A stretch of DNA of 64,000 bases from Chiloscyllium plagiosum (lineage: Eukaryota): the NCBI RefSeq assembly GCF_004010195.1, contig NC_057718.1, forward strand, positions 64,423,637-64,487,636, given 5' to 3'. This document shows positions 1 to 59,112 of this stretch, in pieces (positions within the stretch are counted from its first letter, which is position 1; the number at the start of each line of letters is the position of its first letter). Under the pieces are notes generated by a model. The model had not been told where the DNA came from. It saw nothing but the letters and a program-made list of their open reading frames with translations, and ran no database searches. Both the position numbers and the translations under genes were made by a program.

Positions 1-544
1 CAGGCCGGCTACTTGCGGGGCGTTTCAGAGAACACCTCTGGGACACCCAGACCAACCAACCCAACTACCCTGTGGCTCAACACTTCAACTCCCCCTCCCA
101 CTGCACCAAGGATATGCAGGTCTTTGGATTCCTCCATCGCCAGACCACAACAACACGAGGGTTGGAGGGAGAGCGCCTCATCTTCCGCCTAGGAACCCTC
201 CAACCATAAGGGATGAACTCGGATTTCACCAGTTCCCTCATTTCCCCTCCCCCTACCTTGTCTCAGTCAAATCCATCGAATTCAGCACCGCCTTCCTAAC
301 CTGCAATCTTCTTCCTGACCTCTCCACCCCCACCCCACTCCAGCCTATCACCCTCACCTTGACCTCCCTCCATCTATCGCATTTCCAAAGCCCCTCCCCC
401 AAGTCCCTCCTCCCTACCTTTTATCTCAGCCTGCTTGGCACACTTTCCTCATTCCTGAAGAAGGGCTTATGCCCGAAACGTCGATTCTCCTGTTCCCTGG
501 ATGCTGCCTGACCTGCTGCGCTTTTCCAGCAACACATTTTCAGC
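1..544 (+). mobile_element. Penelope-like element (PLE) 3' portion: GIY-YIG endonuclease remnant plus pseudo-LTR (family A)
   Basis: Translates as ..RFREHLWDTQTNQPNYPVAQHFNSPSH..LIFRLGTLQP, typical of the PLE GIY-YIG C-terminus. It is followed by a pyrimidine-rich tract and the pLTR seen many times in this window. Confidence 0.85.
455..482 (+). ncRNA. Minimal type-I hammerhead ribozyme motif (family A, intact core)
   Basis: CTGAAGA-A-GGGC-TTAT-GCCC-GAAA-CG-TC: conserved CUGANGA and GAAA boxes, 4-bp stem II, palindromic ACGT in place of stem III, GUC cleavage triplet. Activity not shown. Confidence 0.7.
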
Positions 545-2252
545 CCTTAAAGATCAGCAAGGCTGTCTACACGTGGAACCACAGGAGATAGGGGAGATAC
601 TAAATGAGTATTTTGCATCAGTGTTTACTGTGGAGAAGGATGTGGAAGCTAGAGAACTTGGGGAAATAAACAGCGATATCTTGAAAAGCATCTATGTTAC
701 AGAGGAGTTGGTTCTGGTCATCTTAAAATGCATAAAGGTGGAAAAATCACCAGGACCGGATCAGGTGTACCCTAAAACTTTGTGGGACATAAGAGAAGTG
801 ATTGCTGGGCCTCCACTGAGATATTTGTATCATTGATAGCCACGGGTGAGGTGCTGGAAGACTGGAGGTTGGCGAATGTGGTGCCACTATTTAATAAAAG
901 TGATAAGAAAAAGCCAGGGAACTATAGACCGGTGAGCCTGACATCAGTGGTGGGCAAGTTGTTGGAGGAGATTCTGAGGGACAGGATTTACATGTATTTG
1001 GAAACTGATCAGGGATAGTCAGCATGGCTTTGTGTGTGGGAAATTGTGTCTCACTAACTTGATTGGGTTTTTTGAAGACTTGATGTAGAAGATTGATGAA
1101 AGCAGAGCAGTGGATGTTGTCCATACGGACTTCAATAAGGCATTCCACAAGGTTTCGCAGACTGGTTAACAAGGAGAACTAACCATTTGGATACAAAATT
1201 GGTTCAAAGGTAGGAGACAGAGGGTGGTGGTGGAGGGTTGCTTTTTGGACTGGAGGTATGTGTCCACTGACGTAAGGATTGGTGCTTATGTCATTTGTCA
1301 TTTACATAAATGATTTGGAAGTAAGTATTGGAGGTATGGTTAATATGTTTGCAGATGATGCCAAAATTCATGGTTTAGTGGACAGCAAAGAAGGTTACCT
1401 CAGAGTACAACGGGCCTTTAAACGGAAGGGGTGATGGACCGAGGACTGGCAGATTGAGTTTAGTCTAGATAAATGTGAGGTGCTGCATTTTGGAAAGGCA
1501 AATCAGGGCAGGACTTGCACACTTAATAGTAAGATCCTGCGGGGTGTTGCCGAACAAAGAGACCTTAAAGTGCAGGTTCATAGTTCCTTGAAAGTGGAGT
1601 TGCAAGGTAGGATAGGAGAAGGCATTTGGTATGCTTGCCTTTGTTGGTCAGTGCATTGAGTACAGGAGTTGGGATGTCATGTTGCAGTTGTACAGGACAT
1701 AGGTGAAGCCACTTTTGGAATACAGCGTTCAATTCTGGTCTCCCTGCTATAGAAAGATGTTGTGAAATTTGAAAAGGATCAGAAAAGATTTACAAGGATG
1801 TTGCCAGGATTTGAGCTATATGGACAGGCTGAATAGGCTGTGGCTATTTTCCCCAGAGCATCAGAGGCTGAGGGGTGACTTTATAGAAGTTTATAAAATC
1901 CTGAAAGGCATGGATAGGGTAAATAGACAAGGTCTTTTCCCTGGAGTAGGCAAGTCCAACGATAGAGGGTATAGGTTTAAGGTGATAGGGGTAAGAATGA
2001 AAAAGGACCTAAGGGGCAACTTTTTCATGCAGAGGGTGATGCATATATGGAATGAGTTCCTGGAGGAGATAGTGGAGGCTGGTACAATAACAACATTTAA
2101 AAGGCATCTGAATGGATACATGAATAGGAAGGGTTTAGAGGGATATGGGCCAAATGCTAGTAATAGGGCTCGATTAATTTCGGATATCTGGTCAGCATGA
2201 ATGAGTTGGACTGAAGGGTCTGTTTCCATAGTGGACATCTCGTTGACTCTAT
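545..2252 (+). mobile_element. CR1 LINE, 5'-truncated, degenerate ORF2 (RT) with 3' UTR
   Basis: ORF fragments KSPGPDQVYP, WRLANVVPLFNK..PGNYRPVSLTSVVGKLLE, FADD-like motif, RLRGDFIEVYK, and the CR1-type 3' end. Confidence 0.92.
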
Positions 2253-2399
2253 AAAACAGGGGATTGATGCTCCAAAGGGGGATTATTTCAGAAGCCACAA
2301 AGTTGACTAAACGCTGCTATATTATGGTGTCAGTTTCTAAACCAAATGAATCCATAACCAACTGAGTTGACTTAACAGATTTGATCAAGGCAGATTTGA

Positions 2400-2705
2400 T
2401 CATGTCTATAGACAAGAGCTTCAACTGCCCTCTGCAATAAAGAATTCCACAGATTCACTTCCTCATCTCTATCTAAACTAGGTGACCTCTTAGCCTAATA
2501 TTATACCTCTGGTCCTCGACTCTCTCACAGTTGGAAATAACCTCTCCAAATCTAAACTGTCATGATCCATAAGAATCTTACATTTCAATAAGTTCTCTTC
2601 TCAGTTTTCTAAACTGGATTGAATACAAGCCCAACCTACTCAACCTCTCCTCATAAGCCAGTCCCTTCATACCCGGGAACCTTCTTTGGGCTGCCTTCAA
2701 TGCAT
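2400..2705 (-). mobile_element. Old CR1-group LINE 3' remnant
   Basis: Degenerate similarity to the reverse complement of the CR1 ORF2 C-terminal region seen elsewhere in the window. Confidence 0.45.
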
Positions 2706-2759
2706 GAAATTTTCTGACAATGTCTTAGACCTACTGGCCAAAATTGAACCTATCTACAA

Positions 2760-4225
2760 GCTCCCACGTCTTATTGTCTTATGGTAACTTTATTAAATAC
2801 AAAGGAACTTGAAAAGAAGCCTCCAAAAATCCAAAGACTTTGATCATTGCTGATGCAATATTACATGATTATAGAATGTGTATAGTGGATGTGCCAGACT
2901 ATGCTGCAACTTTATCAAAAATAATCATTGACAGCCCATACCAGGAAGATGCAAACATTTATTCAAAAAGACTTTCCTTAACACACTCACGATTGGTCAG
3001 GCACAACAAATATGTTGCAGAAAATTCAAGAGAGGAGGCTCAATTATGTGTTGACAAACATGGGCAGGTTCGCATGATTTGCCTTGATGTCTGGCCAGAG
3101 TATGCTGCCTGAAAGGAGCACTCAAACCTTTTATGTAGGTGTTCCTCTCTTGTGTGACAGACCAAAGACAGGGAACTAACTCTGAAGTTAATTAAACAAA
3201 CGCTTATTTAACTCCTTAGGTACCAATACTCAGTACAAAATGTACATTCATTGCAGCATTTACTACTTACTTCATCTAACTTAACTTCAACGTTCACTCA
3301 TTTTATTTGATTTCACTTTATCTGACTTTAACTTCATTCATATTTAAACCTAAGTCTAATTTAAACTTTATACATTTGAAACAAATACATTTTCAAGCCA
3401 ACTACAGGGAGAATGCCTCATCTTCCACCTTGGGATCCTACAACCACATGGCATCAACACCAGCCTCACCACTTTCTAAATCTCCCCTCTCCCAACCTCA
3501 TCCCCAACCTAACCCTCCAATTGGGCTTCACCCTCTTGACCAGTCCTACCTGTCCATCTTCCTTCCCATCTATCCACTCTATCTGCCCCACTGATTTATC
3601 ACAATTATCTCCCACCTGTATCCACCTATCATCTACTCACCTACCTTCCCCCTCAGCCCCACCCCCACCACCTGATTTATTTCTCAGCCCCCTTCCCCCT
3701 CCACATTCCTGATGAAGGACTTATGCCCAAAAGGTCAACTTTCCTGGTCCTCGGATGCTGCCTGACCTGCTGTGATTTTCCAGCACCTCACATTTTGACT
3801 CTGTAGCTCTTTGTCAACCTCACAGTCATTTCTGCTGCTGGCCACCTAATGGCAAGTATATCCTTAGTAGCCTTGTCCTGCAGCAGAATTTTGAACAATG
3901 CCATTACATCAGTGTTATTGATGACTTTTTGATCTATAATGAATGGTTGGTAGTCCCAAGACTTCTCCATCTGGACATCCTCCAGCAGATTCACCAGGGA
4001 CAACCAGGTATTTCAAGTGTCAGATTGGGACACAATGGTCAGTGGGTGGCCTGGTACTTCTCATCCCCTCAAGCACATGGTCTCCAACTGCACTTTGTGC
4101 CCTATGCAGAGACAGCCTGCCTTTCTCCTTTCTAGCTAGACCATTAGAAATCCTTGACATTGATCTTGTTGAAGATATGGGGATGTTTTTTCTTAACTTG
4201 GTCAACTGTTATTCCCACAAATAAT
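2760..4225 (+). mobile_element. Gypsy/Ty3 pol remnant (end of RNase H to integrase Zn-finger), interrupted by a PLE fragment
   Basis: ..VTLLNTKELEKKPPKIQRL.. near 2785 and DDFLIYNEWLVVPRLLHLDILQQIHQGQPGIS near 3920, matching the Gypsy integrase N-terminal 'IHxGHxG' region. Confidence 0.65.
3405..3802 (+). mobile_element. PLE 3' remnant with pLTR and degenerate hammerhead
   Basis: ..CLIFHLGILQPHGIN.., then the pLTR containing cctgatgaaggacttatgcccaaaaggtc. Confidence 0.75.
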
Positions 4226-4800
4226 TGCAATGCATATAATTCTGGATATACTGTAAGTTTTATAAAATTTAATGTTACATAGACAAGGCATAATTGGAAA
4301 TTGGACACACGGTAAGGACTGGAGTTCATCACCACTTTCTATTTAAATTGGTTTTGTCCTGATTCTCATTAACATTCATCTTTTTATATACTAGGTTATA
4401 TACTAGCTGTGGCTTTTATATACTATCTCTGGTTAACTTCTTTGAGGCCGTGTTGTTCACGCATAGAATTCTTGATGTAGTTGCCTCTGGCAGTGGAGCA
4501 CAATCAGCCAATAGTGTTTCCAGTTCTTTGTAGCCTTGTTTGGAATTGATCATGTTACTGAGGTACTGTCAAACCAAGCGTGAAGCTGAGAGTTGTCTGC
4601 AATCTATTATATTAAAGAAACCTCCTGGAAAAGAGTGACAATTTTCATCTCATCCAACTCAACTATAACTCCACACGACTAGAGAGAGAATGTAGTACTA
4701 TTATTAGCTTTAGACTGGTTGTAGGTTGCAAGATCAACTTTTCTCTCTGTCCCAGGCACTAAAGGTAAGTTTCACCAAGTGTGACAGAAAGAGGAATGAC

Positions 4801-5538
4801 GTGGAGGTGCCGGTGTTGGACTGGTGTGGACAAGGTTAAAAATCCCACAACACAGGTGATAGTCCAACATGTATATTTGGAAATACAAGCTTTTGGAGTG
4901 CTGCTTCTTCATAAAGAAGCTAATGGGGCAGGATTATAGGATACGGAATTTATGGTAAAAGATCAAAGCATAGTAAAAGATCTCTCTCTCTCTCTCTATC
5001 ACACGCACACACACACACTCTTCCCCCCTTCACATGCACATACACATATAAATCTAAGGAGTGAATTTGCATTTGCAGATTTTTATTTGCAGATATATTC
5101 TATTTTGTTCAAAAAGCACACAATCTGTAGGCATTCAGTCCATGTGACATCTTATAAATCCCTACTTTGGAAATAGAACCAGTCTGACTCAAAGTTGGAA
5201 TACAGACAGATTCTAACTTCACACTTTTAATGCATTGTCTGAACTGAGATGTCACTTTTTAAGTAAACCTTAAGTTATCTTGGGAATGTGACTTCAAAGA
5301 AGTTCTGGGATTTACATATTAATGAATTGAAAGCTGCAACCGCATTCTAAGTGATTAAAGACTTAAACAGCAGTCTAGATTTGTTCAATACATCACACCA
5401 TGACACTTTGATCTTTTATTATAAATACTGTGTTCTATAATCCTGTCCCACTAGTTACCTGATGAAGGAGCAGTACTCGGAAAGCTTGTATTTCCAAATA
5501 AACCGGTTGGATTATAACCTGGTATTGGGTGATTTTTA
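4801..5538. mobile_element. Fold-back PLE-derived element (family B) with inverted pLTR arms and a 15-bp TSD
   Basis: AGAAAGAGGAATGAC at 4786-4800 and 5539-5553. Arms ~4836-4965 and ~5405-5538 are imperfect reverse complements. Hammerhead-like core at 5459-5487. Confidence 0.8.
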
Positions 5539-5907
5539 AGAAAGAGGAATGACAAACTAAGCTTGCATCTTCAACCAATAACACAGAAACAATTTTAAGG
5601 AAATTGATTAATCCATCCCACACTCATTCTCTGTAAATCACAGACATGTTGGGGAGGGAAAGGGGTGGAATGTATCGTAAATAATAATGGGGGGGGCGGG
5701 GTGGAAGGGATGTTCAGAGAAAAAGAGTAAATTATATGTTTACTCATAGGAATAACAACTGAGCGTGTGTGAAAAGATCTATACCATAGTGTCATTGATC
5801 TATTACATCTGGAGTTTGATTCTGTAGAACTCTGGAGAAAATGGCCTTTTTTAAAAACCAGCTTCTATATATAATTACGTTCAATGAAAAATAGACTTCA
5901 CTTTACT

Positions 5908-6044
5908 TCCTTCCTGATGAAGGGTTTTTGCCCGAAACGTCGATTTTCCTGCTTCTTGGATGCTGCCTGACCTGCTGTGTTTTTCCAGCACCTCTCTAAT
6001 CTTGGCTCTGATCTCCAGCATCTGCCGTATTCACTTTCACCTAG
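5908..6044 (+). mobile_element. Solo PLE pLTR insertion (family A) with intact hammerhead core and 11-bp TSD
   Basis: TTCACTTTACT at 5897-5907 and 6045-6055. Core CTGATGA-A-GGGT-TTTT-GCCC-GAAACGTC at 5914-5941. Confidence 0.85.
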
Positions 6045-7262
6045 TTCACTTTACTACATCACAGACCTAGTTACTTACCATGGCACTGCATTCCCTGAAG
6101 CTAGAGAGATTCTGATTGACCCTCCAGCCTTGTGAGCCTGGGTAACCAGCTTTGATTGGTTAGTGAACCCATCTCCATTCCAATTAAAGTCTCACCCACA
6201 TGAAGATGTCAACTTTTGTCACTTCCCCACTGCAGGGGGTTTTCTGACCAGAAAGCAAGCTCAACTACTGTTTTGTAACTCGGGAGAAAATTTAGCCCTC
6301 TATTTTAGTAATGATGTATGAGGAATAAATATTCACCAGGACATTTTGGAAAACTTCTGTATTCTTTGCCCACATAATACAATAAGATTACAGTATTTAC
6401 GTCCGTCGCTTACATTTCAGCACTAGAGTTAGTCTCAGTTTCACTTGAAATATGTCTAGACTTAGCAATGACAGTACAATTTACTGTGCCACAGCTAATA
6501 CTGCAGTTCTGATGCTTCTACTAGGTATGTGCAATTTTGCAGACATTTTTGAATGTGCCATGGAAAAGATTTGTTGGCATAATCAAATCTCTGGAGTTAA
6601 ATGGACGCTGACTACCTGGATAAGAAACAAGCCAAGAGATGTTTCTATCAAATTGGAGGGAAGTTGCTGTTTTAAGGCAATATTTCAAAATTTGCAGCTG
6701 ACACAAAACTTAGAAATTTATTTAGGAAACAATGAGCAGAATAACAATAAATTTGAGGAGAGCTTGGACAAATGGGTGAAAGGGGCAGATACATAGCAGA
6801 GAAATATGAATGAGGAGACTCAATATTAACTAAATAGTACAGAGTTCTAAAGGTAGAAAGAGGTTTGGAAACTGAAGAACATGAGAGTTCACGGACAATC
6901 TTTGAAGGTTGATGGACATATCAATAAAGATATTTTAAAAAGCATAGTGGATTCTGGCTATTATGATAGAGGCATTGGTTGCAACATTAGATTACCTCTG
7001 GAAACAGATTGTAGGATAGTGATTAACCTAAACATGTTGCTATGGGGCAGGTTGCACACAAACTTTGTGCTGCCTCCTCACTTTGATGACTTAATTGTGC
7101 AATTAGTGCTAAATGCACTGTTGAGTGACTGCGTGCTTGAGCTGACACTTAAAATTGTGAACAGGTACACTGAGTTAAAACTCACCAACAGTACTGAGAG
7201 TCAGCCTGTGGATGTGCTGGAAGCCATTCTGAAAGTGATTTTGACCTGGAAAATACACAGGA

Positions 7263-7900
7263 ATGATAGAACTTTGCAGAGAGTGTGCTCCAAGATTTTC
7301 CAACTCTTCTTGTTGGCTTGATTCAGGAGGAATTGAGAGGAGATGTAATTTATCCGCAAGGATCCAAGATGCATTTCAGGCAAACTTTACAAAGGCAGCA
7401 GGACCAGGAAGCAATGCCACAGACCTGAATACAGTGCCAAGATGTTTGTTTATCTCCCCTGATCTGTCTATGCCAGAGACTGTATCTCTTTAATATCATA
7501 TTGTTTAATTCACCACCCCAACCATCAACCAACAATGATTATCAATTATGACCTATACAATATCTCACTTTTATAGTAAGATAGTCACTTTTAGTCACTT
7601 AGCTCTTCGTCAGCCTCACAGTTTGCCACACCACAGCCAGTTATTCACCGATGGCATCCACATTACCCAAACATATTACACTACACTCACTGATACATTT
7701 CACTACACTCACTGATACATTTCACACTCCCTTGTAGGATAAGATGTTTAATAATTGGAGCAGCATCTCAGCAGCACGAGACAAGCATGGCTCCATATCA
7801 CAGTGGAGAAAACAGTGATCACCAACAGTGTGGCAGCTATTGCTGAAGTTGTGGCCAATGTGATTCTGAGAACGCATTGAAGATATGCTGATACCTATCC
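7263..7900 (+). pseudogene. Degenerate Myb/SANT-like DNA-binding gene of a Harbinger-type transposon
   Basis: With frameshifts: RECAPRFSNSS..LIQEELRGDVIYPQGS..RT*IQC. This resembles the 'RAPRFS..EVL..RT..QCRK' Myb/SANT-like domain. A possible second exon follows the AG at ~7737. Confidence 0.45.
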
Positions 7901-8063
7901 TCCATTGCATATCCCACTCTACCCTCACTTTTCAATCTCTTCTCATTTCAAGCTGCAAATTGTGTAGGCATCTATCTATTGCCGCAAGTAGATCATTCTT
8001 GTTAGGTACCCTGAAGTATTGCATAACCAGGGATATTTAGCTCTCAACATTGACCTCCTTGGA

Positions 8064-8432: not shown

Positions 8433-8519
8433 ATGATTATAACTATGTCTTTGTAATGGTGAGTAGACCTATATCATTTATTTTTATTGGTGCCACTAGT
8501 CTGTCTTTTCTTTGTCTTA

Positions 8520-24424: not shown

Positions 24425-25034
24425 GGTGGGATCAGTGGATACTCAAAAGGGAGGTTCTCTGGAGGGACTAACAAAGTGGGCTGATGCAGAGAAGAGAGAG
24501 AGGTGCACAAGAGAGTTACAAAATAACGGAGAACAGTACTCTGAGTTTTATCATTTGGATAGAGTCCTGAGAAATCCACACAGAGAGGTAGAGAAATTCT
24601 GTGATTCTAAGGGTTAAAGTTATCACTGATCATCGGTCCTTCAAACCATTACATTGCAAGCTGCACATGAAAGCACCAAACATTTGGAAAGTTAATGCTA
24701 GAATAAAAGCCTCCAACTCAGAAATTGGGCTATGGCTCACAGTTCCACCCCAATCCTTCAGACTTTGAGGTGTATGATCAAAAGCCTATTGGTCTCTATG
24801 ATGGTAACAGTGATCAAACCTTTATGGCTACCTCCTTTTAGCCATTGATATGATAGTGAGGCCCATGGTGCAATATCCGGGGCTGCTCACATTTTTCTTT
24901 TGATTCATGTATCATGCAAGCATGACATTTCAAAAATGGTTGCTCTCAAATGTCTTGCTCTACATTTCTTTCATACTTGGGTATGTTCAAAAGTGAAATT
25001 TTGCATGGCTCAATATTAAGAATATTGAGCCATG

Positions 25035-25127
25035 TTCCTGTTCCTGGATGCTGCCTAACCTGCTGCACTTTTCCAGCAACACATTTTCAGCTCTGATCTC
25101 CAGCATCTGCAGACCTCACTTTCTCCT
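25035..25127 (+). mobile_element. PLE pLTR 3' fragment (family A) with 13-bp TSD
   Basis: CAATATTAAGAAT at 25011-25023 and 25128-25140. Ends at the canonical ..ctcactttctcct. Confidence 0.85.
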
Positions 25128-27309: not shown

Positions 27310-27319
27310 CAATAAGGAT

Positions 27320-29310: not shown

Positions 29311-30900
29311 GATAGTGGTTGTAAGTTTGGAACATACTATCTTTGATCTTTGGTGAATTTCTGTAATGCATATTGTACATAGTCCACATTGCTACTGTTG
29401 AATATCGGTGTGGATGGGAGGGTGTAGATGTGGTCTAAGTCAATTAGACTGCTTTGTCCTGGATAGTATCAAGTTTCTTCAGTGTTGTTGGAGCTGCACA
29501 TGTTCAGGCAAATGGGGAGTGTTCCATCACACCCCTGACTTGTGCCTTATAGATGGAGGACAGACTTTGGGTAGTCAGGAAGTGAATTCCTCAGTGCAAG
29601 ATTCTAACCTGTTCTTGTAACCACAGTATTTATATGGTAAGTATATTTCACTTTCTGTCAATGGTAATCCAAGATGTTGATAGTTGGGGTTCAGTAATCA
29701 TAATGTCATTGACTGTCAAAGGCTAATGGTTAGATATTCTCTAATTGGAGATGGTCATTACTGGCATTAATGTTACTTGAAATTTATCAGCCCTAGCCTG
29801 GATGTTATTCAGTTCTGGTTGCATTTGAACACAGACTGACAATATATAAGGACATGTGCAATTACCAGCCAACATCCCCACTTCTGACCTAATAATGAAG
29901 AGAAATACTGCAGTGATTGGGACTGAGGTCATTGACCTTCAACAACAACAACCATCTTTCTTTGTGCTAGGTATGATTTCAAGCAATTGAGCGTTTTCAC
30001 AATCTGTGTTGTCTCCAATTTTGCAAGGGTTCCTTAATTCCAATGCTGCCTTGATGTCAATGAAAGTCACTCCCATGCCATCTCTGGAATTCAGCTCCTT
30101 TGTCCATGTTTGGGTCAAGGAGGGAGGAATTGGCAGTGCTGAGTCCAAGGGTTGGGACTGCGATAAGGTGAGGGGGAGGGGAAATGAGAAAGCTGGAGAA
30201 ATCTGCATTCATCCCTTGTGGTTGGAGGGTTCCTAGGCGGAAGATGAGGTGCTCTTCCTCCAGGCATCGTGTTGCCATGGTCTGGCGATGGAGGAGGCCA
30301 AGGACCTGCATGTCCTTGGCGGAGTGGGAAGGGGAGTTAAAGTGTTCAGCCATGGGGCGGTTGGGTTGGTTTTGTGCGGGTCTCCCAGAGGTGTTCTCTG
30401 AAACGTTCNNNNNNNNNNNNNNNNNNNNNNNNNNNNNNNNNNNNNNNNNNNNNNNNNNNNNNNNNNNNNNNNNNNNNNNNNNNNNNNNNNNNNNNNNNNN
30501 NNNNNNNNNNNNNNNNNNNNNNNNNNNNNNNNNNNNNNNNNNNNNNNNNNNNNNNNNNNNNNNNNNNNNNNNNNNNNNNNNNNNNNNNNNNNNNNNNNNN
30601 CCTATCACCCTCACCTTAACCTCCTTCCACCTATCGCATTCCCAATGCCCGTCCCCCAAGTCCCTCCTCCCTACCTTTTATCTTAGCCTGCTTGGCACAC
30701 CTTCCTCATTCCTGAAGAAGGGCTTATGCCCGAAACGTCGATTCTCCTGCTCCTTGGATGCTGCCTGACCTGCTGCACTTTTCCAGCAACACATTTTTCA
30801 GCTCATGTTTGGAACAAGGCTGCAATGTGGTCAAGAGTTAAGTGGCCCCAGAGGAACCAAACTGAATGACAGTGCCTTTGCCTGTCCTAGTTCTTCTGTA
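29310..30900 (-). mobile_element. Degenerate non-LTR retrotransposon (same family as 8520-9625), interrupted by a PLE
   Basis: QTWTKELNSRDGMGVTFIDIKAA (RT 'LDIKAAFD' motif) on the - strand. Confidence 0.7.
30121..30805. mobile_element. PLE family A with inversion: GIY-YIG on - strand, gap, pLTR on + strand
   Basis: NRPMAEHFNSPSHSAKDMQVLGLLHRQ..LIFRLGTLQP (-). Intact hammerhead core at 30712-30739 (+). Flanked by imperfect CATGTTTGGnnCAAGG duplicates. Confidence 0.85.
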
Positions 30901-31165: not shown

Positions 31166-31350
31166 AGGAGAAAGTGAGGACTGCAGATGCTGGAGATCAG
31201 AGCTTAAAAATGTGTTGCTGGAAAAGCGCAGCAGGTCAGGTAGCATCAAAGGAACAGGAGAATCGATGTTTCGGGCATAAGCCCTTCTTCAGGAATGATT
31301 CTCTTGTTCCTTTGATGCTGCCTGACCTGCTGCGCTTTTCCAGCAACACA
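31166..31350. mobile_element. Fold-back PLE pLTR insertion with TSD
   Basis: pLTR (-) followed by an inverted stub 31297-31350. CACAGCTGAAGGTT at 31152-31165 and 31347-31360. Confidence 0.85.
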
Positions 31351-31360
31351 GCTGAAGGTT

Positions 31361-37337: not shown

Positions 37338-37468
37338 TGGAGAAAGTGAGGACTGCAGAAGCTGGAGATCAGAGTCGAAAAGTGTGGTTCTGGAAAAGCA
37401 CAACAGGTCAGGCAGCATTCAACGAGCAGGAGAATCGATGTTTCGGGCATAAGCCCTTCATCAGGAAT
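37338..37468 (-). mobile_element. Solo PLE pLTR (family A)
   Basis: Core at 37437-37464 (-); imperfect TSD GAATGTGG/GAATATGG. Confidence 0.8.
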
Positions 37469-37469
37469 A

Positions 37470-38575
37470 TGGCTGAGATGCACCAGGATTGTTTGAACTG
37501 GCTGAAACCTAAAGGACATAGCTATTAGATTAAGCCTGTGGCAGGCAAGGCAACTAACAAGAGGGGAAAAATGTACTTGGCCAATCCTCACTAACCTACC
37601 TGGATCAGATGCAAATGTCCATGACAGTATTGATAGAAGTGACCACTATATGATCTTCATGGAGACAAAATCTCGCCTTCAGACTAAGGAACTCTGCATC
37701 ACAACGTGTGGTACCACCACTGCGCTAAACTTGATGACACTACAAGACTGGAATACTTGTATACCAAGGCCCACTCTGAGATTCCGAGTGTCATTGATGT
37801 CAACTTTCCACCGTGTGACATTAACAAACAGCTGAAGACACTGTGAAAGCAACATTCTGCCAGTAGTACTGAAGTTCTAGATCTAGCTGCACCCTTAGCT
37901 GAACAGTTCCAGTATGTCACAACACGAGCATCTATTCAACATATAGAAGATTGCCTAGGTATATCCTGTGCACAAAAGCACGACAAATCCAACTTTGCTG
38001 ATGACTGTTCTATCAGTCTGCTCCAGTCATCAGCAAAGTGATTGAAAGTGTTTTCGGCAGTGCTATTGTACAGCACTTATTTAACAATTACTTGCTGATT
38101 GACACTCAACTTGGGCCACTTGGCTCCTGACTTCATTATAGCCTTTGTTCAAAATGGACAAAAAGCTGAATTCCAGAGGTGAAATAAGAACAAAGCAGCA
38201 CTCAACTGAGTGTGGCATCAAGAAACCTCAGCAAACCCGGAGTCAGTAGGAATCAGAGCGGGGAAAGGTCATAAGTTGCGCAAAGGAAGATAGTTATGGT
38301 TGTTGGAAGCCGATTATCTCGGAGGAGTTCTCAGGATAGTGATTTTGCCCCAAACGTCTTCAGCTACTTCATCAATGACCTTTCCTTCATCATTAAGTCA
38401 GAAATGGGATGTCTGCTCATGACTTCATGATGGTCAGTATCATCAGTCTCTTTTCAAATGCAGTAAAACGTGGACAAGATTCCGGCTTAAGTCAATTAAA
38501 TGGCAAGGAACATTGTGTCATAATAAGTCCCAGGTAATGATCATCGCCAACATGAGAGAATCCAACCAAAATTAC
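37470..38575 (+). mobile_element. Degenerate non-LTR retrotransposon RT region (family of 8520-9625)
   Basis: LAAPLA.., VYPVHK..DKSN.., VISKVIE, GVLRIVILPQTSSATSS ([13 protein letters not shown] with frameshift). Confidence 0.65.
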
Positions 38576-41791: not shown

Positions 41792-41974
41792 GGTGAAAGT
41801 GAGGACTGCAGATTAGAGTCGACAGTGTAGTGCTAGAAAAGCACAGCAGGTCAGGCAGCATCCAAGGAGAAAGAGAATCGACGTTTCAGGCAAAAGTCCT
41901 TCATCAGGAAGCCCTGATAAAGGGCTTTTGCCCAAAACATCAATTCAGCATGATTAGTAAGTTTGACACTCTCG
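41792..41974. mobile_element. Fold-back PLE pLTR in CR1 with 15-bp TSD
   Basis: ATATCTTGGGGACAG at 41777-41791 and 41975-41989. Hammerhead-like cores at 41880-41907 (-) and 41914-41941 (+, degenerate). Confidence 0.85.
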
Positions 41975-42631: not shown

Positions 42632-42780
42632 GCTGGACACACTTTCCTCATTCCTGAAGAAGGGCTTATGCCCGAAATGTTGATTCTCCTGCTCCTTGGA
42701 TGCTGCCTGACCTGCTGCGCTTTTCCAGCAACACATTTTCAGCTCTGATCTCCAGCATCTGCAGTCCTTACTTTCTCCTC
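42632..42780 (+). mobile_element. Solo PLE pLTR (family A) with 14-bp TSD
   Basis: GGTAGAAGTAGTCT at 42618-42631 and 42781-42794; core at 42654-42681. Confidence 0.88.
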
Positions 42781-50959: not shown

Positions 50960-51417
50960 GTATATATTCAATGCTATCACAAGTCAATTTGACTAATGTG
51001 ATTAATATAATCTCTGAGTATAGAATAAAGGAGTTAACTCATTTATTTGTTTTAGTCCCATGGAAAAGAGAAACAAAGAAAAGGAATAGATCATTCAGTC
51101 TTTCAAACTTGCTCTGCCATTCAATTAGATCATGCTGACCCATACCTAAATCAATTGATTTACTTTTTGTTCCATATCTTTGTAACTACCCGAAGTATCT
51201 TGCATTAACATTCTTGAACATTTCAATTGACTGAATAACCACAGCCTTTTATGGGAGGTTTAGATCTTTACTACTTTTGGCATGACAATCTAGTCGCTGG
51301 TGCCACAGCTAAATAGGCAATCTTTTACGATTATATCTTCTTGATCTTATGTACAAATAATATACTCACAGAAATAGACAGTTTGGTCAACAAACTGTTA
51401 CAAGTATGATATTTTTA

Positions 51418-51730
51418 AGAATCATAGAACCCTACAGTGTGGAAGCAGGTTATTTGGCTCATTGAGTCCGCACCAACCTTCTGAAGAGCATCCCTACTAG
51501 ACCCGGACCACTACCACCCCGCCCACCCCCCCCAAAAAAAAACCCCAGCCCTATAACCTTGCATTTCCCATGGCTAATCACCCTCGCCAGCACATCCCTG
51601 GACACTACGGGCAATTTAGCATGGCCAGTCCACCTAACCTGCTCATCTTTGCACTGTGGGAGGAAACCGGAGTACCTGGAGGAAACCCATGCAGACATAG
51701 GGAGAGTATGCAAAGTCCATACAGTCACCA
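51418..51730 (-). mobile_element. HE1 SINE (5'-truncated)
   Basis: V-domain and CR1-like tail on the - strand. Confidence 0.88.
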
Positions 51731-52050
51731 ATGTTATATTTTGGGATTGTGTCTTTAATTGAAGTGGTTTATATGACTTATTCTGGCCTCCTTGACAGTG
51801 AGTCTTGATGATATGGTTTTTGATGATTAAAGGGAGGTCCAGTTTCATTGTTTCATTGGAAAGAAGTTGTGTATGATATTCACATTTGGAGATGATGATA
51901 GATGATAATACTGTTCTTACAGCAATTAGGGTTGCTCATGTCAAAAGTGCCAAAGAGGAATTGAGGATGCCAGGTTGTAAACATTTATGCTTTAAACTGG
52001 CCATTTATCTAAGATGGTAGAGAGTTGCCAATCAAAGATAACTAATCAGT

Positions 52051-52182
52051 ATTTCCTGAAGAAGGGCTCATGCCCGAAACGTTAGTTCTCCTGCTCCTTG
52101 GGGATGCTGCCTGACCTGCTGCGCTTTTCCAGCAACACATTTTCAGCTCTGATCTCCAGCATCTGCAGTCCTCACTTTCTCG
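52051..52182 (+). mobile_element. Solo PLE pLTR (family A)
   Basis: Core CTGAAGA-A-GGGC-TCAT-GCCC-GAAACGTT at 52056-52083. TSD TAATCAG(T/A)ATTTC at 52043-52055 and 52183-52195. Confidence 0.85.
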
Positions 52183-52289: not shown

Positions 52290-52750
52290 CCGGGATCCGG
52301 ATTAATGCATGCAATTATGATGTTGTTATCACAGAGACATGGGTGAAAGAGGGACAGGATTGACAGCTTAATGTTCCAGGATATCGGTGTTTTAGGCGAG
52401 ACAGAGGAAGAAGCAAAAGAGGTGGGGGAGTCGCTTTCTGGTTGGGCCACATATCACAGCTGCACTGAGGGAGGACATCCTGGAGGGATCTTGCAGTGAG
52501 GCATTATAGGTGGAGTTTAGGGATAGGAAGGGTGCAATCACAATGCTGAGATTGTACTACAGAACTCCCAGCTGCCAGCAGGACATAGATGAAGAGATAT
52601 GTACGCAGATTCTAGAAGATGTGCAAATTAACTTCCCCCATATTGACTGGGACCCCATTAGTGCCTAGGGTTTGGATGGGAGCAATTAATTAGGTGTGTC
52701 TGTAGGGCGTTTTTGAAACACGATATGGATAGTCCAGTGAGGGAAGGGGG
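52290..52750 (+). mobile_element. CR1 endonuclease remnant; apparently continues at ~59113
   Basis: ITETWV..LNVPGYRCFRRDR..YYRTP..NFPHIDW..DSPVREG. Confidence 0.75.
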
Positions 52751-52751
52751 T

Positions 52752-53805
52752 TCAAAAAGTGTGGTGATGGAAAAGCACAACTGGTCAGGCAGCATCTGAG
52801 GAGCAGGAGAGTCGATGTTTTGAGCATAAGCTCTTCACCAGGAATGTGGGAGGTGCCCAAGTGAGATAGTTGGATCTGGGATAAGGTGAGGAGAGGGGAG
52901 ATGAGGTAACTAGTGAAATCAACATTGATCCCATGTGGTTGGAGGGTCCCACGGCAGAAGATGAGGTGTTCTTCCTCCAGGAGTCGGGTGGCTAGGATTT
53001 GGTAGTAGAGGAGGCCTATGTCCTTGCACGTCCTTGGGGAGTGGAAGGGAGAGTTGAAGTGTTCAGCCACAGAAAGGTGGGGTTGTTTGGTTCGTGTGCA
53101 GGAGATTTCTCTGAAATGTTCCACGAGTTGGTGTCCATTCTCCCCAATATAGAGGAGACAACATCGAGAGCAACAGACACAGTGGATGAAGTGTTTGGAG
53201 GTGTAGGAAAATCTCTGCTGAATATGGAAGGATTCTTTGGGGCCTATATCTCTGGTGGGAAATATATTTCTGGTGGTGGGGTCTGACTGTAGGTGGCGGA
53301 AATGGTGGAGGATGATGCATTGCATCCAGAGCTTGGTGGGGTGGAAGGTGGGGACCAGGGAGGTTCTGTCCTTGTTGCGGTTGGAGGGGTGGGGTTCATG
53401 GGCGGAAGTGCGGCAAGTGGAGGAGATGTGCTGGAAGACATCTCCCGGTACCATCCTTTGCCACCTCAAGAGGTGTAAAACCTGCACTCACACTTCCCCC
53501 CTTACTTCCAATCAAGGCCCCAAAGAATCCTTCCACATCGGGCAGAGATTTTCCTGCACCTCCAAACACCTCATTTACCATGTCCATTGCTTTCGATATG
53601 GTCTTCTTTACATTGGGGAGACAAGATGCCAACTTGTGGAACGTTTCAGAGAATATCTCTGGGACACATACCAATCAATCTCACTGCTCTGTGGCAAAAC
53701 ACTTCAACTCCCCCTCCCACTCAGCCAAGGACATGCAAGTCCTGGGTCTGCCCCACTGCCAAATTCTAGCTACCCAAAGCCTGGAGGAAGAACGCCTCAT
53801 TTTCT
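52752..53805. mobile_element. PLE with back-to-back inverted GIY-YIG segments
   Basis: LLYIGENGHQLVEHFRE (-, 52690-53487) and GLLYIGETRCQLVERFREYL (+, 53450-53805). Confidence 0.88.
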
Positions 53806-53806: not shown

Positions 53807-53970
53807 GGTAAAAACAATGACTGCAGATGCTGGAAACCAGATTCTGGATTAGTGGTGCTGGAAGAGCACAGCAATTCAGGCAGCATCCGAGGACAGGCAA
53901 AATCGACGTTTCGGGCAAAAGCCCTTCATCAGGAATAAAGGCAGAGAGCCTGAAGCATGGAGAGATAAGC
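53807..53970 (-). mobile_element. PLE pLTR variant with intact hammerhead core
   Basis: The reverse complement of 53905-53932 is CTGATGA-A-GGGC-TTTT-GCCC-GAAACGTC. Confidence 0.8.
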
Positions 53971-55150
53971 TACCCTCTCAGGCAACATGTTCCATATTTG
54001 ACCCATCCCCTGGGTAATTTGCTTTTCCATCAGATCCTCGCGAAATGCTTCATTTTTCACTTTAACCTTAATTCAATTGGTCTAAGACATGCCTACATCG
54101 CGGAAGTATTTATCACAATCGGCCCAGTCTATATCACTCACCATTATGTCTGCATCAATTGCCCCCTTAGCCTCTTCTGCTCCACAGACCCCAAACAAAA
54201 GTTAACTTTTTGCTGAGACCTCTCACTTCAGGGAACATCCCGTGAAACCTCTCTGCAATCTCTGCAGTGCAATTGTTCCCTGCCGATTTTGTAGCGATTG
54301 GACCCGCGCAGACTGTGGACTAACCATATCTTTCTTTAGAGTCTGCAACAATACTTCCTTCCTCCTATATTCCACCCTGTGGCTGATGATTATGCTTCCT
54401 TACGAACTTGCAGATGCAAGGACTACTGGGTTTTCAGTTCAGTACAACAGTGAACCTTTCATCGTTTTAAGTAAAGGTCCTGCTGAGAGCCCTGTCATTG
54501 ACGGTGCCAGGAATCTTCACTGCCAAAACAAAACTTTCCTGAGCATAACGCACCGCCTTTCCCCCGGTACCTCCCGCTATATGCCTCATCATTAGAGCAG
54601 ATGCGATCGGGAGGTAAGCTAAGAGAATGGAAGAGAGTCCATTCAGGTAGGATACTGTGACGATGCATAATAAATGTAACAGTGGAAATTGAAAGNNNNN
54701 NNNNNNNNNNNNNNNNNNNNNNNNNNNNNNNNNNNNNNNNNNNNNNNNNNNNNNNNNNNNNNNNNNNNNNNNNNNNNNNNNNNNNNNNNNNNNNNNNNNN
54801 NNNNNNNNNNNNNNNNNNNNNNNNNNNNNNNNNNNNNNNNNNNNNNNNNNNNNNNNNNNNNNNNNNNNNNNNNNNNNNNNNNNNNNNNNNNNNNNNNNNN
54901 NNNNNNNNNNNNNNNNNNNNNNNNNNNNNNNNNNNNNNNNNNNNNNNNNNNNNNNNNNNNNNNNNNNNNNNNNNNNNNNNNNNNNNNNNNNNNNNNNNNN
55001 NNNNNNNNNNNNNNNNNNNNNNNNNNNNNNNNNNNNNNNNNNNNNNNNNNNNNNNNNNNNNNNNNNNNNNNNNNNNNNNNNNNNNNNNNNNNNNNNNNNN
55101 NNNNNNNNNNNNNNNNNNNNNNNNNNNNNNNNNNNNNNNNNNNNNNNNNN

Positions 55151-58100
55151 AGGAAAAAGACTTTCACTGTCTATCCTGTCTAATCCTCTGATCATCTTGT
55201 ATGTCTCTATCAAATCCCCTCTTAGCCTTCTTCTTGCCAATGAGAACAGGTTCAAGTCTCCCAGCATTTCCTCATTAGACCTTTCCTCCAGACCAGGCAA
55301 CGTCCTGGTAAATCTCCTCTGCTCCTTTTCCAATGCTTCCATATCCTTCCCGAAATATGGGGACCAGAACTGTACAGAATATTCCAAGTGTGGCCGCACC
55401 AGCATTTTGTATAGTTGCAGCATGATATTGCAGCTCCGGAACTCAATCCCTCTACGAATGAAACCTAACACACTGTATGCCTTCTTAACAGCACTATCCA
55501 CCTGGGTGGCAACTTTCAGGGATCTATGTACATGGACTCCAAGATCCCTCTGCACATCCACACTACCAAGAATCTTTCCATTGACCCAGTGCTCTGCCCT
55601 CCTGTTATTCTTCCTAAAGTGAATCACCTCACATTTAGCTGCATTGAACTCTATTTGCCACCTCTCAGCCCAACTCTGCAGTTTATTCAGGTCCCGCAGC
55701 AACCTGTAACATTTTTCCAAACTGTCCACTACTCCACCGACTTTAGTGTCGTCTGCAAATTTACTAATCCATCCACCTATGCCTGCGTCTAAGTCATTTA
55801 TAAAAATGACAAACAGCAGTGGTCCCAAAACAGATCCTTGTGGCACACCACTCGTTAACCGGACTCCAGGCTGAATATTTTCCGTCAACCACCACACGCT
55901 GCCTTCTTTCATAAAGCCAGTTTCTTATCCAAACTGCTGAATCACCCTCAATTCCATGCCTCTGCATTTTCTCCAACAGCCTACCATGTGGAACCTTATC
56001 AAAGGATTTACTGAAATCCCTGTATATCACGTCAACTGCCCTACCCTCATCTACATGCTTGGTCACCTTCTCAGAAGACCCAATGAGGTTTGTGAGACAC
56101 GACCTGCCCTTGACTATCTGAAATCGAACTGTTGCTTGCTAGATGATTATAAATCATTTCCAAAACCTTTCCTACAACAGAAGTAAGGCTCACTGGTCTA
56201 TAATTACCTGGGTCATCTCTACTGCCCTTCTTGAACAAGGGCACAACATTTGCAATCCTCCAGTCCTCTGATACCAAACCTGTAGACAGTGACGACTCAA
56301 ATATCAAAGCCAAAGGCTCTGCTAATCACCTCCCTAGCTTCCCAGAGAATACTCGGATAAATCCCATCCGACCCAGGGGACTTACCTACTTTCACTCCTT
56401 CTCGAATTGATAACACGTGTTCATAACTAACCTCAATCCTTTCTAGTCTAAAATCTCGTATCTCATTCTTCTCCTCTACAATGTTCTCTATTTCCTGAAT
56501 GTAAACTGATGAGAAATATTCGTTTAGCACCTCTCCGATCTCCACAAGGTCCACACTCAACTTCCCACTTCTGTCTTTGACTGGCCCTATTCCTACCCTA
56601 ATCATCCTTTTATTCCTCCGCTTTAGGGCTCTCCTTTATTCTATTTGCTACAGACTGCTCGTGTCCTCTCTTTGCTCTTCTTAACTCTCTCTTTAAATCC
56701 TTCCTAGCTGATCTGTAACTCTCCATCGCCTCAGCTGAACCATCTTGCCTCATCCACACATAAGCCTCCTCCTTCTTTATAACAAGAGATGCAATTTCTG
56801 TTGTGAACCATGGCTCCCTTACCTTATCACTTCCTCCCTGCCTAACAGGGACATACCTATCAAGGACACACAATGTCTGTTCCTTAAACCAGTTCCACAT
56901 TACCATTATCTGCATCCCCTGCATTTTGCTACCCCATTCTATGCATCCTAATTCTTGCCTAATCACATTATAATTGCCCTTGCCCCATTGATAACTCTTG
57001 ACCTGTGGCATGTACCTAACCNNNNNNNNNNNNNNNNNNNNNNNNNNNNNNNNNNNNNNNNNNNNNNNNNNNNNNNNNNNNNNNNNNNNNNNNNNNNNNN
57101 NNNNNNNNNNNNNNNNNNNNNNNNNNNNNNNNNNNNNNNNNNNNNNNNNNNNNNNNNNNNNNNNNNNNNNNNNNNNNNNNNNNNNNNNNNNNNNNNNNNN
57201 NNNNNNNNNNNNNNNNNNNNNNNNNNNNNNNNNNNNNNNNNNNNNNNNNNNNNNNNNNNNNNNNNNNNNNNNNNNNNNNNNNNNNNNNNNNNNNNNNNNN
57301 NNNNNNNNNNNNNNNNNNNNNNNNNNNNNNNNNNNNNNNNNNNNNNNNNNNNNNNNNNNNNNNNNNNNNNNNNNNNNNNNNNNNNNNNNNNNNNNNNNNN
57401 NNNNNNNNNNNNNNNNNNNNNNNNNNNNNNNNNNNNNNNNNNNNNNNNNNNNNNNNNNNNNNNNNNNNNNNNNNNNNNNNNNNNNNNNNNNNNNNNNNNN
57501 NNNNNNNNNNNNNNNNNNNNNNNNNNNNNNNNNNNNNNNNNNNNNNNNNNNNNNNNNNNNNNNNNNNNNNNNNNNNNNNNNNNNNNNNNNNNNNNNNNNN
57601 NNNNNNNNNNNNNNNNNNNNNNNNNNNNNNNNNNNNNNNNNNNNNNNNNNNNNNNNNNNNNNNNNNNNNCTCCCTCCTGCACCATCCTTGCAGCCACGTG
57701 TTCAGCTGATACCTCTCCCTATTCCTTGCCTCGCTATCACGTGGCACAGGTAACAAACCAGAGATAACAACTCTGTTTGTTCTTGCTCTCAGCTTCCACC
57801 CTAGCTCTCTGAAATCCTGCCTTACATCCCTATCCCTCTTTCTACCTATGTCGTTGGTACCTACATGGACAACGGCTTGAGGCTGGTCACCCTCTCCCTT
57901 CAGGACCCCAGAGATACGATCTGAGACATCACGGATCCTGGCACCTGGGAGGCAACACACCAACCATGAGTCTCGTTCATTCTCAACAAACCTTCTATCT
58001 GAGCCTCTAACTATCGAGTCCCCAGTGACTAACACTCTCCTCCTTTCCCTTCTTCCCTTCTGTGCAACAGGAACAGGCTCTGTGCCAGAGACATGGGTCC

Positions 58101-58884
58101 CACTGCTTACCCCTCAACAGTAAGTCGTCCCCCTCAACAGTATCCAAAACGGTATACATGTTTTTCAGGGGTATGACCACAGGGGATCCCTCCACTGACT
58201 GTTTTCTCCCCCTTCGAACAGTCACCTAGCTTTCTTCATGCCTAGGAGTAACAACTTCCCTGTAACTCTTAGCCATCACAGCCTCTGCCTCCTGAATGAT
58301 CTGAAGTTCATCCAGCTCCCGCTCCAGTTCCCTAACACAGTCTTGGAGGAGCGAGAGTTGGGTGCACTTCCTGCAGATGTACTTGGATGGGACACTAACG
58401 CCGTCCCTTACCTCAAACATCATGCAGGAGGAACATTGCTCTCCCTGCACTGCCATCCCTGCTAGTCCCCATATCACAAAGTAAAAAAGAAGAGACGCTT
58501 ACCTGATATGTCCCTGGTCTTTAAGGTTAGAGGAGGTGGTTGGGTGGGAGGCCCTACGAACGTAGGGTTTCGGGTTGAGAAAACACTGACTTATATAGCT
58601 GGATGGAAATAAAAATAAGAAGTCCCTCCTTTCCCAGAAACCTCTGCTCTCTGACTTCAAATTTAAAAACACAAATCAGTGACTCACTGCTCCCGGCAGA
58701 CCCCTGGTGCAAGCTCCCGCTCTTCGAATTGCTGCTGCCGCTGAAAAACAGAAATGGAGGACTCCCGCGCTCGTGGTAAGTTTTTAAAGGCTCAAATCAG
58801 TGAATCACTGCTCTCGGCAGGCCCCTGGTGCAAGCTCCCACCCTTCGAGTTGCTGCTGCCACTGAAAAACAGAAATAGAGGACT
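55151..58884 (-). mobile_element. Near full-length CR1 LINE: tandem 5' monomers, ORF1 (Zn-finger + SGNH esterase), ORF2 (RT); two gaps
   Basis: ORF1 CSSC..CRKC..coiled coil; GDSIVRG..PGA..HVGTND esterase blocks; ORF2 [20 protein letters not shown]. Confidence 0.95.
58662..58884 (-). repeat. 121-bp tandem monomers at the CR1 5' end
   Basis: aaatcagtga at 58673 and 58794; both units share ccctggtgcaagctccc..gctgctgcc..ctgaaaaacagaaat. Confidence 0.85.
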
Positions 58885-59112
58885 ACCCATCGCATTTCAT
58901 CTACCTATTGCATTTCTAGCTACCTTCTCCCCATCCCCACCCCCTCTCCCATTTATCTCTCAGCTCCCTGGGCCACCTCCAGATTCCTGATGAAGAGCTT
59001 ATGCTCGAAATGTCGACTCTCCTGCACCTTGGATGCTGCCTGACCGGCTGTGCTTTTCCAGTGCCATACTTTTTGACTCTGATCTCCAGTATCTGCAGTC
59101 CTCACTTTCTCC
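58885..59112 (+). mobile_element. PLE pLTR (family A variant)
   Basis: Core CTGATGA-A-GAGC-TTAT-GCTC-GAAATGTC at 58987-59014. Confidence 0.82.

Follow-up and report, generated by a model that had tools for sequence, protein, structure and literature searches.

Minimal hammerhead ribozymes have been described in the Penelope-like elements (PLEs) of metazoans (Cervera and De la Pena 2014, PMC4209133), and PLE hammerheads are reported to cleave as dimers (Lunse, Weinberg and Breaker 2016, as cited in PMC6765202). The main-text parts of the 2014 paper name no cartilaginous fish among the species with such motifs; the species table of a retrozyme preprint (bioRxiv 10.64898/2026.07.22.740005) includes one. 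We analysed a window of 64,000 nucleotides from Chiloscyllium plagiosum. Its dispersed motifs belong to the class already described in 2014: in the parts of that paper drawn on here, as in the window, a type-I core with a G10.1-C11.1 pair is combined with an extra nucleotide between 9 and 10.1 and a palindrome at 15.1-16.1 / 15.2-16.2 where helix III is absent, and most copies are solo and truncated, with opposite-strand pairs and several families per genome. Helix II has 4 bp and helix I 2 bp, compared with 7-8 and 4-5 bp in Schistosoma, and the copy number is far above that given for coelacanth (about 4,000) and Xenopus (about 9,000), although the descriptors differ (PMC4209133). As ribozymes, the motifs are an expected example of this class, and the copies look inert.

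A profile search of the window recovered 13 core-bearing copies of the repeat (family A), 8 on the forward and 5 on the reverse strand, at the positions given in a first-pass annotation, together with 3 tail-only pieces. The seven sites named there all read as described, and the intact cores are exactly its five (455, 5914, 30712, 52056, and 53932 on the reverse strand), where an intact core has the 11 core letters, a paired stem II, the palindrome and H17. The main features are as follows.

3..545, forward: 5'-truncated Penelope-like copy with a GIY-YIG-like C-terminal frame (3-206), a pseudo-LTR rich in pyrimidines (TTATCT 34 nt upstream of the core), the hammerhead and a short tail; no Pfam match itself, related copies match Pfam GIY-YIG
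455..482, forward: intact core of the N7=A subfamily with a TTAT loop; cleavage predicted after 482
3702..3805, forward: older, damaged copy with pseudo-LTR; endonuclease-end remnant upstream (about 3420-3700)
5909..6044, forward: short solo copy with long tail; intact core 5914-5941 with one G.U in stem II; 11-bp duplication 5897-5907 / 6045-6055
25033..25125, forward: tail-only copy, core absent; 15-bp duplication 25009-25023 / 25126-25140
30129..30806, both strands: composite of an inverted endonuclease fragment (30129-30407, reverse), an assembly gap, pseudo-LTR, intact core (30712-30739, forward) and short tail; 9-bp candidate duplication 30105-30113 / 30804-30812
31168..31353, both strands: head-to-head pair, long-tail arm (reverse) joined to a core-less short-tail arm (forward); core 31265-31292 (reverse), palindrome broken to ACAT; 14-bp duplication 31152-31165 / 31347-31360
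37340..37471, reverse: short solo copy, palindrome broken (ACAT)
41793..41946, both strands: head-to-head pair with damaged cores starting at 41907 (reverse) and 41914 (forward); duplication 41777-41791 / 41975-41989
42632..42779, forward: solo copy with its start 22 nt upstream of the core (42654); palindrome changed to ATGT; 15-bp duplication 42617-42631 / 42780-42794
52053..52182, forward: short solo copy; intact core 52056-52083 with GUU triplet and loop TCAT
52722..53805, both strands: GAGC/GCTC-subfamily copy in a head-to-head join; damaged core 52815-52842 (reverse) with G at A6, G12 changed to A and an ACAT palindrome; endonuclease frame 52861-53460 (reverse) meets an inverted endonuclease fragment 53440-53805 (forward)
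53809..53965, reverse: TTTT-loop subfamily copy; intact core 53905-53932, about 35 nt of pseudo-LTR
58930..59112, forward: GAGC/GCTC-subfamily copy, likewise damaged; core 58987-59014 with ATGT for ACGT, partial pseudo-LTR upstream

The motif occurs well beyond chance, with a structural descriptor giving 66 motifs in 1.064 Mb and none in the reversed sequence, and the two main variants giving 52,878 exact matches genome-wide and none for the reversed pattern. The Rfam search proposed in the first-pass annotation returned no hammerhead family in the window at E<=1, so that the hammerhead assignment rests on the descriptor and the literature. An Rfam match to mir-335 proved to be an inverted pair (31223-31348) and no hammerhead. 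The core CUGANGA...GAAA..UH with G10.1-C11.1 is intact in 5/13 window copies and 50/186 sampled copies, and the extra nucleotide between A9 and G10.1 is A in 137 of 144. The palindrome that had been noted in place of stem III is ACGU in families A, C and D and AGCU in family B. Helix I has only 2 contiguous pairs in 36/49 family-A motifs and 3 in families B and D. The loop had been thought to vary freely; instead, TTAT, TTTT and TCAT track subfamilies.

Compensatory change in stem II had also been claimed. The GAGC/GCTC change is real (265 seen versus 13 expected), but within family A it does not behave as recurrent covariation: among the first 100 matches listed, 87 have one common core-loop string and the flanks are shared too, which looks like one inherited subfamily event. 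Covariation is stronger between the four families than within family A, and the compensation between A, B, C and D in stem I, stem II and the palindrome supports the claim that the hammerhead fold was selected in the source lineages. After insertion, copies decay without visible selection, and the catalytic G12 has mutated in 21% of 144 copies, a CpG rate that C11.1, C15.2 and C17 share (20-22%). Core positions outside CpG differ less (50/1440) than tail positions (145/2304), a difference that we put down to base composition and ascertainment, though it could mask weak constraint.

The proposed Penelope-like origin is borne out by reverse transcriptase (RT), linker and GIY-YIG frames linked to the hammerhead-plus-tail ends. 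This anatomy points to a PLE of the Neptune/Nematis type, here called Neptune-type, Neptune being the vertebrate clade of these elements. The element consists of RT, a CX4CxxC linker, GIY-YIG, a pseudo-LTR of about 200 nt, the hammerhead and a tail, and a single frame of 561 aa (L153) matches Pfam RVT_1 at E 1.4e-8 and GIY-YIG at E 5e-4. GIY-YIG was found in 8/12 frames (2 of them above cut-off), and a Pfam scan of the five endonuclease fragments in the window gave no match. The linker is present in L153, L156 and L170 and a DKG motif in L201 and L202; a CX2-5CxxC linker before the endonuclease and DKG are given as features of the Neptune/Nematis clade in the parts of PMC8557442 used here. The hammerhead lies in the pseudo-LTR and follows the GIY-YIG frame on the same strand at a distance of about 200 nt; for 28/36 endonuclease-end alignments a core on the same strand lies within 550 nt. 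None of 60 loci, many of which reach assembly gaps, yielded a full-length copy with a contiguous direct 5' pseudo-LTR, and the link from tail to ORF start is therefore assumed from other PLEs. Two tail ends exist, about 30 nt apart. Extrapolation from 50 intact cores in 1.40 Mb gives approximately 120,000 genome-wide; the window repeats are real, and are mostly decaying end-pieces of a very abundant element.

The arrangement of the copies is strongly biased. Among 309 copies, close neighbours are head-to-head in 120 cases, tail-to-tail in 4 and direct in 1, and 10,873 head-to-head junctions were counted genome-wide. The pairs sit inside one target duplication of 9-17 bp, mostly 14-15 bp, which was detected in 34/46 pairs versus 5/529 shuffled ones. 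One long and one short tail are joined in 43/46 pairs, and two long tails in none. An inverted, 5'-truncated neighbour copy, with a tail at one end and a target duplication, is thus a regular form here. A direct neighbour occurs within 100 nt for 1/309 copies and within 500 nt for 19. About half of the copies are only 100-135 nt long and have target duplications.

Where copies end at their 5' side is equally non-random. In 99/202 young copies the end falls at -9..+5 relative to C3, corresponding to a hazard per nt of 0.057. In comparison, the hazard is 0.005 near the cut site and about 0.01 in the upstream region; for solo copies by themselves the value at this hotspot is 0.036. Only 8/202 ends lie at 24-32, which rules out the ends as marks of the cut site. 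An AG 18-28 nt before the core was considered as a splice acceptor setting the ends, which do not cluster there. Of the 100 junctions listed, out of 9,758, 57 have an extra G before A(-4), versus 26% expected (p 4e-11); these 100 are a non-random set, the first on one contig, and some are the two strands of one palindrome. The G is present in 25/40 of the subset judged by eye as flank-derived, and at sampled loci in 7/11 ends at -4 and 0/15 at -3. In sampled solo copies the extra letter is G in 4 and A in 2, a count too small to discriminate. Many of the G junctions are also explicable by the partner arm or by microhomology. Some pairs have the extra G on both arms, and many pairs have very unequal arms. 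An untemplated G is described as a mark of the RNA cap in the portion of PMC6425141 consulted. Upstream, TTAT[CT]T lies 33-36 nt before C3 in 63/185 family-A copies with differing spacers, placing this TATA-like box approximately 30 nt upstream of the putative start A(-4). Family B has TATAAA 37-40 nt before C3 in 17/35 copies, and its 5' ends lie about 4 nt further upstream than those of family A. RNA reads gave no peak at the start site or the cut site in the 2% that was read of one poly(A) single-cell run, a poorly suited data type.

Because the 5' ends pile up before the core, and because of the extra G and the -30 box, we favour, at a probability of roughly 0.7, the reading that these are hammerhead ends of a Neptune-type PLE and for the most part insertions in decay, which probably arose when reverse transcription started inside the RNA and ran off at its capped 5' end, four bases ahead of the core. 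A promoter in the pseudo-LTR, with its box at -30 and start at A(-4), would yield a capped RNA of which the first four bases are the whole of stem I. The element protein would nick both target strands about 14-15 bp apart, with each nick priming cDNA synthesis at one of two internal start sites; both cDNAs would halt at the cap, gain the extra base there, and be joined via microhomology into a two-armed palindrome. Longer copies may come from read-through RNA or template jumps. The template would be the capped, uncleaved RNA, with the ribozyme cutting rarely, in source elements and only with help (a dimer and/or the element protein), to process the RNA or switch it off at a later stage and not to make the template.

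A first alternative gives cleavage that very task. Tandem transcripts would be cut at both pseudo-LTRs, circularised and copied, as modelled in the sections of PMC4209133 cited here. The fold is conserved across four families, and cleavage therefore probably matters at some step. However, the scarcity of ends around the cut site (8/202) and of direct tandem neighbours speaks against its making the template, and a circle has no end at -4; we hold this to be quite improbable. Similarly low odds attach to the idea that the short copies form a non-autonomous family of their own, SINE- or retrozyme-like, that amplifies from its own short transcripts: the 100-135 nt copies with target duplications would suit it, but the subfamilies concerned also include copies that have pseudo-LTR and endonuclease upstream, the short copies lack the -30 box, and the units are not tandem. 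Somewhat better placed, though still unlikely, is that the 5' pile-up reflects fold-back or self-priming of a single cDNA, or an antisense template, at the short palindrome before the core. Several junctions resemble fold-backs or microhomology joins, and head-to-head palindromes of rotifer PLEs are read as antisense self-priming in the part of PMC3846280 consulted. Against this, solo copies have the same hotspot, the upstream sequence of family B differs and its ends shift with its TATA box, some pairs have the extra G on both arms, and the arms of many pairs are very unequal.

The first-pass annotation further suggested that a host pre-mRNA carries several sense-strand cores able to pair in cis, and this is without support, no host exon or local RNA having been found. 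Pfam detected no host-protein family in the window among the 150 longer of 288 unmasked ORFs or in the 200-kb flanks among 100 of 575, and no RNA reads fell on unique bins of window 1-8100 in the same 2% of one run; these negatives have limited power and are compatible with a large intron. That host cores pair via ACGU, cut the pre-mRNA and serve the host is, in our judgement, very improbable. Four intact cores do lie on the same forward strand, poly(A) reads from other loci often contain family-A sequence, and other minimal hammerheads show low activity as dimeric constructs (in the parts of PMC4209133 used). However, the intact forward cores are separated by 5.5-25 kb, an ACGU duplex contributes -1.7 kcal/mol, the pair 2.1-1.1 has a predicted probability of at most 0.08, and no sign of selection is seen in the inserted copies. 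Copies close to each other are inverted, an arrangement that would hide the core within a long hairpin; 31154-31367 is predicted to fold as a single one (-131 kcal/mol). The hammerhead has no likely role at this locus.

Returning to the capped run-off reading, a more tentative extension, to which we give somewhat less than even odds, is that the palindromes record the Penelope cycle as strong-stop-like cDNAs, each primed internally from one of the two nicks, ended at the cap with a cap-derived G and joined head to head, and that the hammerhead near the cap is a self-decapping switch, whose cut, triggered by protein or a dimer, would take RNA out of translation or out of short-copy production instead of making the template; the RNA would begin just four bases ahead of the hammerhead, which would explain the short stem I. 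If true, more than 10,000 palindromic insertions are a direct record of that cycle. What is worth keeping here is the scale (intact cores numbering on the order of 100,000) and the record preserved in the junctions, which bears on two general questions, how PLE inverted ends form and what their hammerheads do. The pile-up at a putative capped start, the rule of one long and one short tail, and the 14-15 bp stagger lead to precise predictions that the existing in vitro system and CAGE could address, and the head-to-head pairs would supply this animal's transcripts with much perfect double-stranded RNA. We found no report of a shark PLE hammerhead, or of a cap or twin-priming reading of PLE ends, in literature for which coverage of subscription journals and supplements was thin.

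As far as the cited parts of each source go, three known systems frame these data. Non-LTR retrozymes (PMC7229834; bioRxiv 10.64898/2026.07.22.740005) likewise have type-I hammerheads, very high copy number and a link to PLEs, but consist of tandem repeats with canonical hammerheads, whereas the copies here have minimal hammerheads and lie dispersed and inverted, not in tandem arrays. Insertions of EN+ PLEs (PMC8557442, PMC3846280) share the head-to-head arms, one-arm tail and target duplication, and their pLTRs contain TATA/Inr, to which the motifs here are similar. Target duplications are mostly 14-15 bp here compared with 8-10 bp in rotifers, and, unlike in those insertions, both arms are often cut down to 100-135 nt. 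Our data favour a capped sense template over the antisense self-priming of PMC3846280. The Poseidon element PAc of Anolis carolinensis (Frangieh et al. 2024, PMC11167929) is known from biochemistry, and the element here from genomic footprints; its linker is of the Neptune/Nematis CX2-5CxxC type, unlike that of PAc. The cDNA stop position and cap mark are not described for PAc in the parts consulted, and its cleavage is assisted by protein. PAc has a hammerhead near the RNA start region, as here, and two internal RT start sites that give the tail, with both target strands extended, to which we liken the tails and arms seen here; uncut RNA is its main template, as we propose for the shark element.

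The first-pass annotation described about 13 dispersed copies of a minimal hammerhead core, here called family A, and every site it named matches the described sequence. A profile search of the window, based on 12 of its own copies, gave 13 core-bearing copies (8 on the plus and 5 on the minus strand) plus 3 tail-only pieces, and the five cores called intact are exactly the five that pass for core, stem II, palindrome and triplet. The structural descriptor found 66 matches in 1.064 Mb and 0 in the reversed sequence, and exact matches over the 3.56-Gb assembly number 52,878 against 0 for the control; since both controls are 0, chance is excluded as a source of the motif. The Rfam search that had been proposed yielded no hammerhead match in the window. 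Intact cores make up 50 of the 186 core-bearing family-A copies in 1.40 Mb sampled, which extrapolates to roughly 120,000 per genome.

An endonuclease-like frame ends about 200 nt upstream of cores 455, 3709 and 52842, and longer genomic copies carry RVT_1 and GIY-YIG in one frame, together with YIDD, a CX4CxxC linker and a DKG motif. A same-strand core lies within 550 nt in 28 of the 36 sampled alignments to the endonuclease-frame C-terminus. A contiguous direct 5' pseudo-LTR was not found in any copy among 60 loci, where long copies often reach gaps. PMC8557442 assigns a CX2-5CxxC-type linker to Neptune and Nematis. The window endonuclease fragments alone gave no Pfam match; two of them are inverted:

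30129-30407, inverted endonuclease fragment
53440-53805, inverted endonuclease fragment

At three sampled loci (L218, L237 and L228), the 5' part of the ORF, ahead of the RT N-terminus, consists of a tandem repeat rich in proline; it includes CCTAACCC, which resembles the reverse telomere repeat, and 5' truncations are often located in it. At another locus (L048, flank block ~242,830), pseudo-LTR and tail are kept and the whole core is apparently deleted.

TTAT[CT]T occurs 33-36 nt before C3 in 63/185 family-A copies, with differing subfamily spacers, and a second family, B, has TATAAA at 37-40 nt upstream of C3 in 17/35 copies. Family-B 5' ends lie about 4 nt further upstream than those of family A, so that both boxes stand about 30 nt before the respective putative start. 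The sequence TCATTCC at the putative family-A start fits the initiator consensus YYANWYY. PMC3846280 notes TATA and Inr motifs within pLTRs, and PMC2377424 an internal promoter. Junctions with a non-template letter before ATTCC total 9,758; among the matches listed (the first 100), this letter is G in 57, A in 29 and T in 14, against 26% expected for G. The partner arm explains part of these junctions. Also among the matches listed, 25/40 have G in a subset judged by eye to be flank-derived, and at the sampled loci G is found at -4 in 7/11 and at -3 in 0/15; a small control on solo copies alone gave G in 4 and A in 2, too few to tell. For L1, PMC6425141 interprets an untemplated G as marking the cap; our searches, which covered subscription journals thinly, returned no literature on shark PLE hammerheads or on a cap mark at PLE ends.

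Among 309 matches, partners within 100 nt are head-to-head in 120 cases, tail-to-tail in 4 and direct in 1, and genome-wide 10,873 family-A and 2,207 family-B junctions have their two cores no more than 30 nt apart. A 9-17 bp duplication (mostly 14-15 bp) encloses 34/46 pairs, as against 5/529 shuffled flanks. One long and one short tail are present in 43/46 pairs, two long tails in none, a rule in keeping with the pair of internal RT start sites described for PAc, the Anolis PLE, in PMC11167929. Anatomy, ends, pairs, duplications and decay we count as observed. In the route we propose, RNA would start capped at A(-4), priming would occur from both nicks, cDNA would be copied as run-off to the cap, and the cDNAs would be joined through microhomology; cleavage in the source elements would probably be rare and assisted. 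If transcribed, a head-to-head pair would form one long hairpin rather than a double hammerhead.

Mapping of the 5' ends used the 202 copies with at least 80% similarity to the profile, leaving out 107 matches that were more divergent or unanchored; 99 of the 202 end at -9 to +5 of C3. The hazard per nt is 0.057 in this interval, about 0.01 upstream and 0.005 around the cut site; a cut-and-circularised template appears improbable to us. Fold-back or antisense self-priming could make 5' ends and pairs; solo copies alone have a hotspot hazard of 0.036, and we regard self-priming as unlikely. The short copies might also form a separate short family, which we hold to be quite doubtful. Finally, a host pre-mRNA carrying sense cores had been suggested. 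Pfam detected no host-protein families among 150/288 unmasked window ORFs or 100/575 flank ORFs. In one poly(A) run, read to 2%, 3,849 reads fall on window 1-8100, on both strands, 95% of them continuing into other sequence; the unique bins 2701-3240 and 6211-7830 received none, and read beginnings and ends form no peaks on window 1-8100. ORF scans and reads thus give a host pre-mRNA at this locus no support, although the window may lie in a large intron; cutting of a host pre-mRNA is very improbable.

The annotation's stem II covariation stood in part. At the second pair, genome-wide counts are G-C 52,878, A.C 921, G.U 769 and A-U 265, the last against 13 expected under independence, so the excess is real. 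However, one core-loop string is common to 87/100 A-U copies among the matches listed (the first 100), and ten fetched A-U copies largely have common flanks; for this reason, the excess is best read as a single change in one source lineage. Differences between families, although few independent events, appear to be better covariation evidence. Stem II sequence and length vary between them, the palindrome is ACGU or AGCU, and stem I differs:

Stem I and related features by family
family A: stem I UUC/GAU
family B: stem I CAC/GUG, stem II GGAGC/GCUCC, palindrome AGCU; 18,117 exact cores genome-wide
family C: stem I GUU/AAC with U-A pairs (3 copies only, full fit in one), stem II 5 bp, tail common with family A; 220 exact cores genome-wide
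family D: stem I CCA/UGG, stem II 6-7 bp; 3 copies, all outside the window

Copies of families B and C in the window
4802-4916 (-), family B
5453-5540 (+), family B
11415-11511 (-), family B
26349-26477 (-), family B
27220-27318 (+), family B
27322-27480, family B
63723-63901, family B
13008-13054 (-), family C, older

In 144 young copies, G12 is altered in 21%, C11.1 in 20%, C15.2 in 21% and C17 in 22%, all CpG, while G5 and G8 are altered in 5-6%, similar to tail guanines. Non-CpG core positions are altered in 50/1440 cases versus 145/2304 for tail positions; the core is somewhat better kept, a difference that base composition and ascertainment may account for. Family-A genomic copies show no visible selection.

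Other repeats in and near the window
31366-36519 (-), a disrupted LINE, presumably L1-like, carrying RT and AP-endonuclease-like frames and abutting the palindromic pair 31168-31353
54467-58113 (-) and about 550-2200, 14000-14600, 42050-44100 and 59700-60900, CR1-type LINE fragments (RVT_1); a GDSL/SGNH esterase-like ORF1 belongs to one of them (57672-58113), and family-A copies 42181-42228 and 42654 are nested inside one
42096-42462, two nearly identical direct repeats of ~165-200 nt within a LINE, adjoining the tail-only piece 42181-42228; either a long target duplication or an artefact of assembly could account for them
44979-47100, RT fragment (RVT_1), adjoining frames resembling a decayed LTR retrotransposon pol
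8064-8436, 39985-40097, 40406-40916, 45025-45181, 51407-51745, 61567-61856 and 62582-62804, dispersed SINE copies, presumably HE1/V-SINE-like
L039:3021-6189 (-), a sampled locus some 14-17 kb ahead of the window, a disrupted provirus-like stretch in which Pfam matches RNase H, integrase and envelope

Folding of the family-A motif gave a stem II pairing probability near 1 and, for the first stem I pair, at most 0.08; the ACGU duplex energy is -1.7 kcal/mol. In PMC4209133, a monomer of a minimal hammerhead did not cleave, and dimers cleaved at a low level. In PMC11167929, cutting by the hammerhead of an anole PLE requires the element protein, and insertion does without the hammerhead. Family A resembles the PMC4209133 hammerheads in the nucleotide added after A9, the G10.1-C11.1 pair, a palindrome in place of helix III and mostly solo copies. 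It is a further case of an already described kind, the minimal hammerhead of Penelope-like elements.
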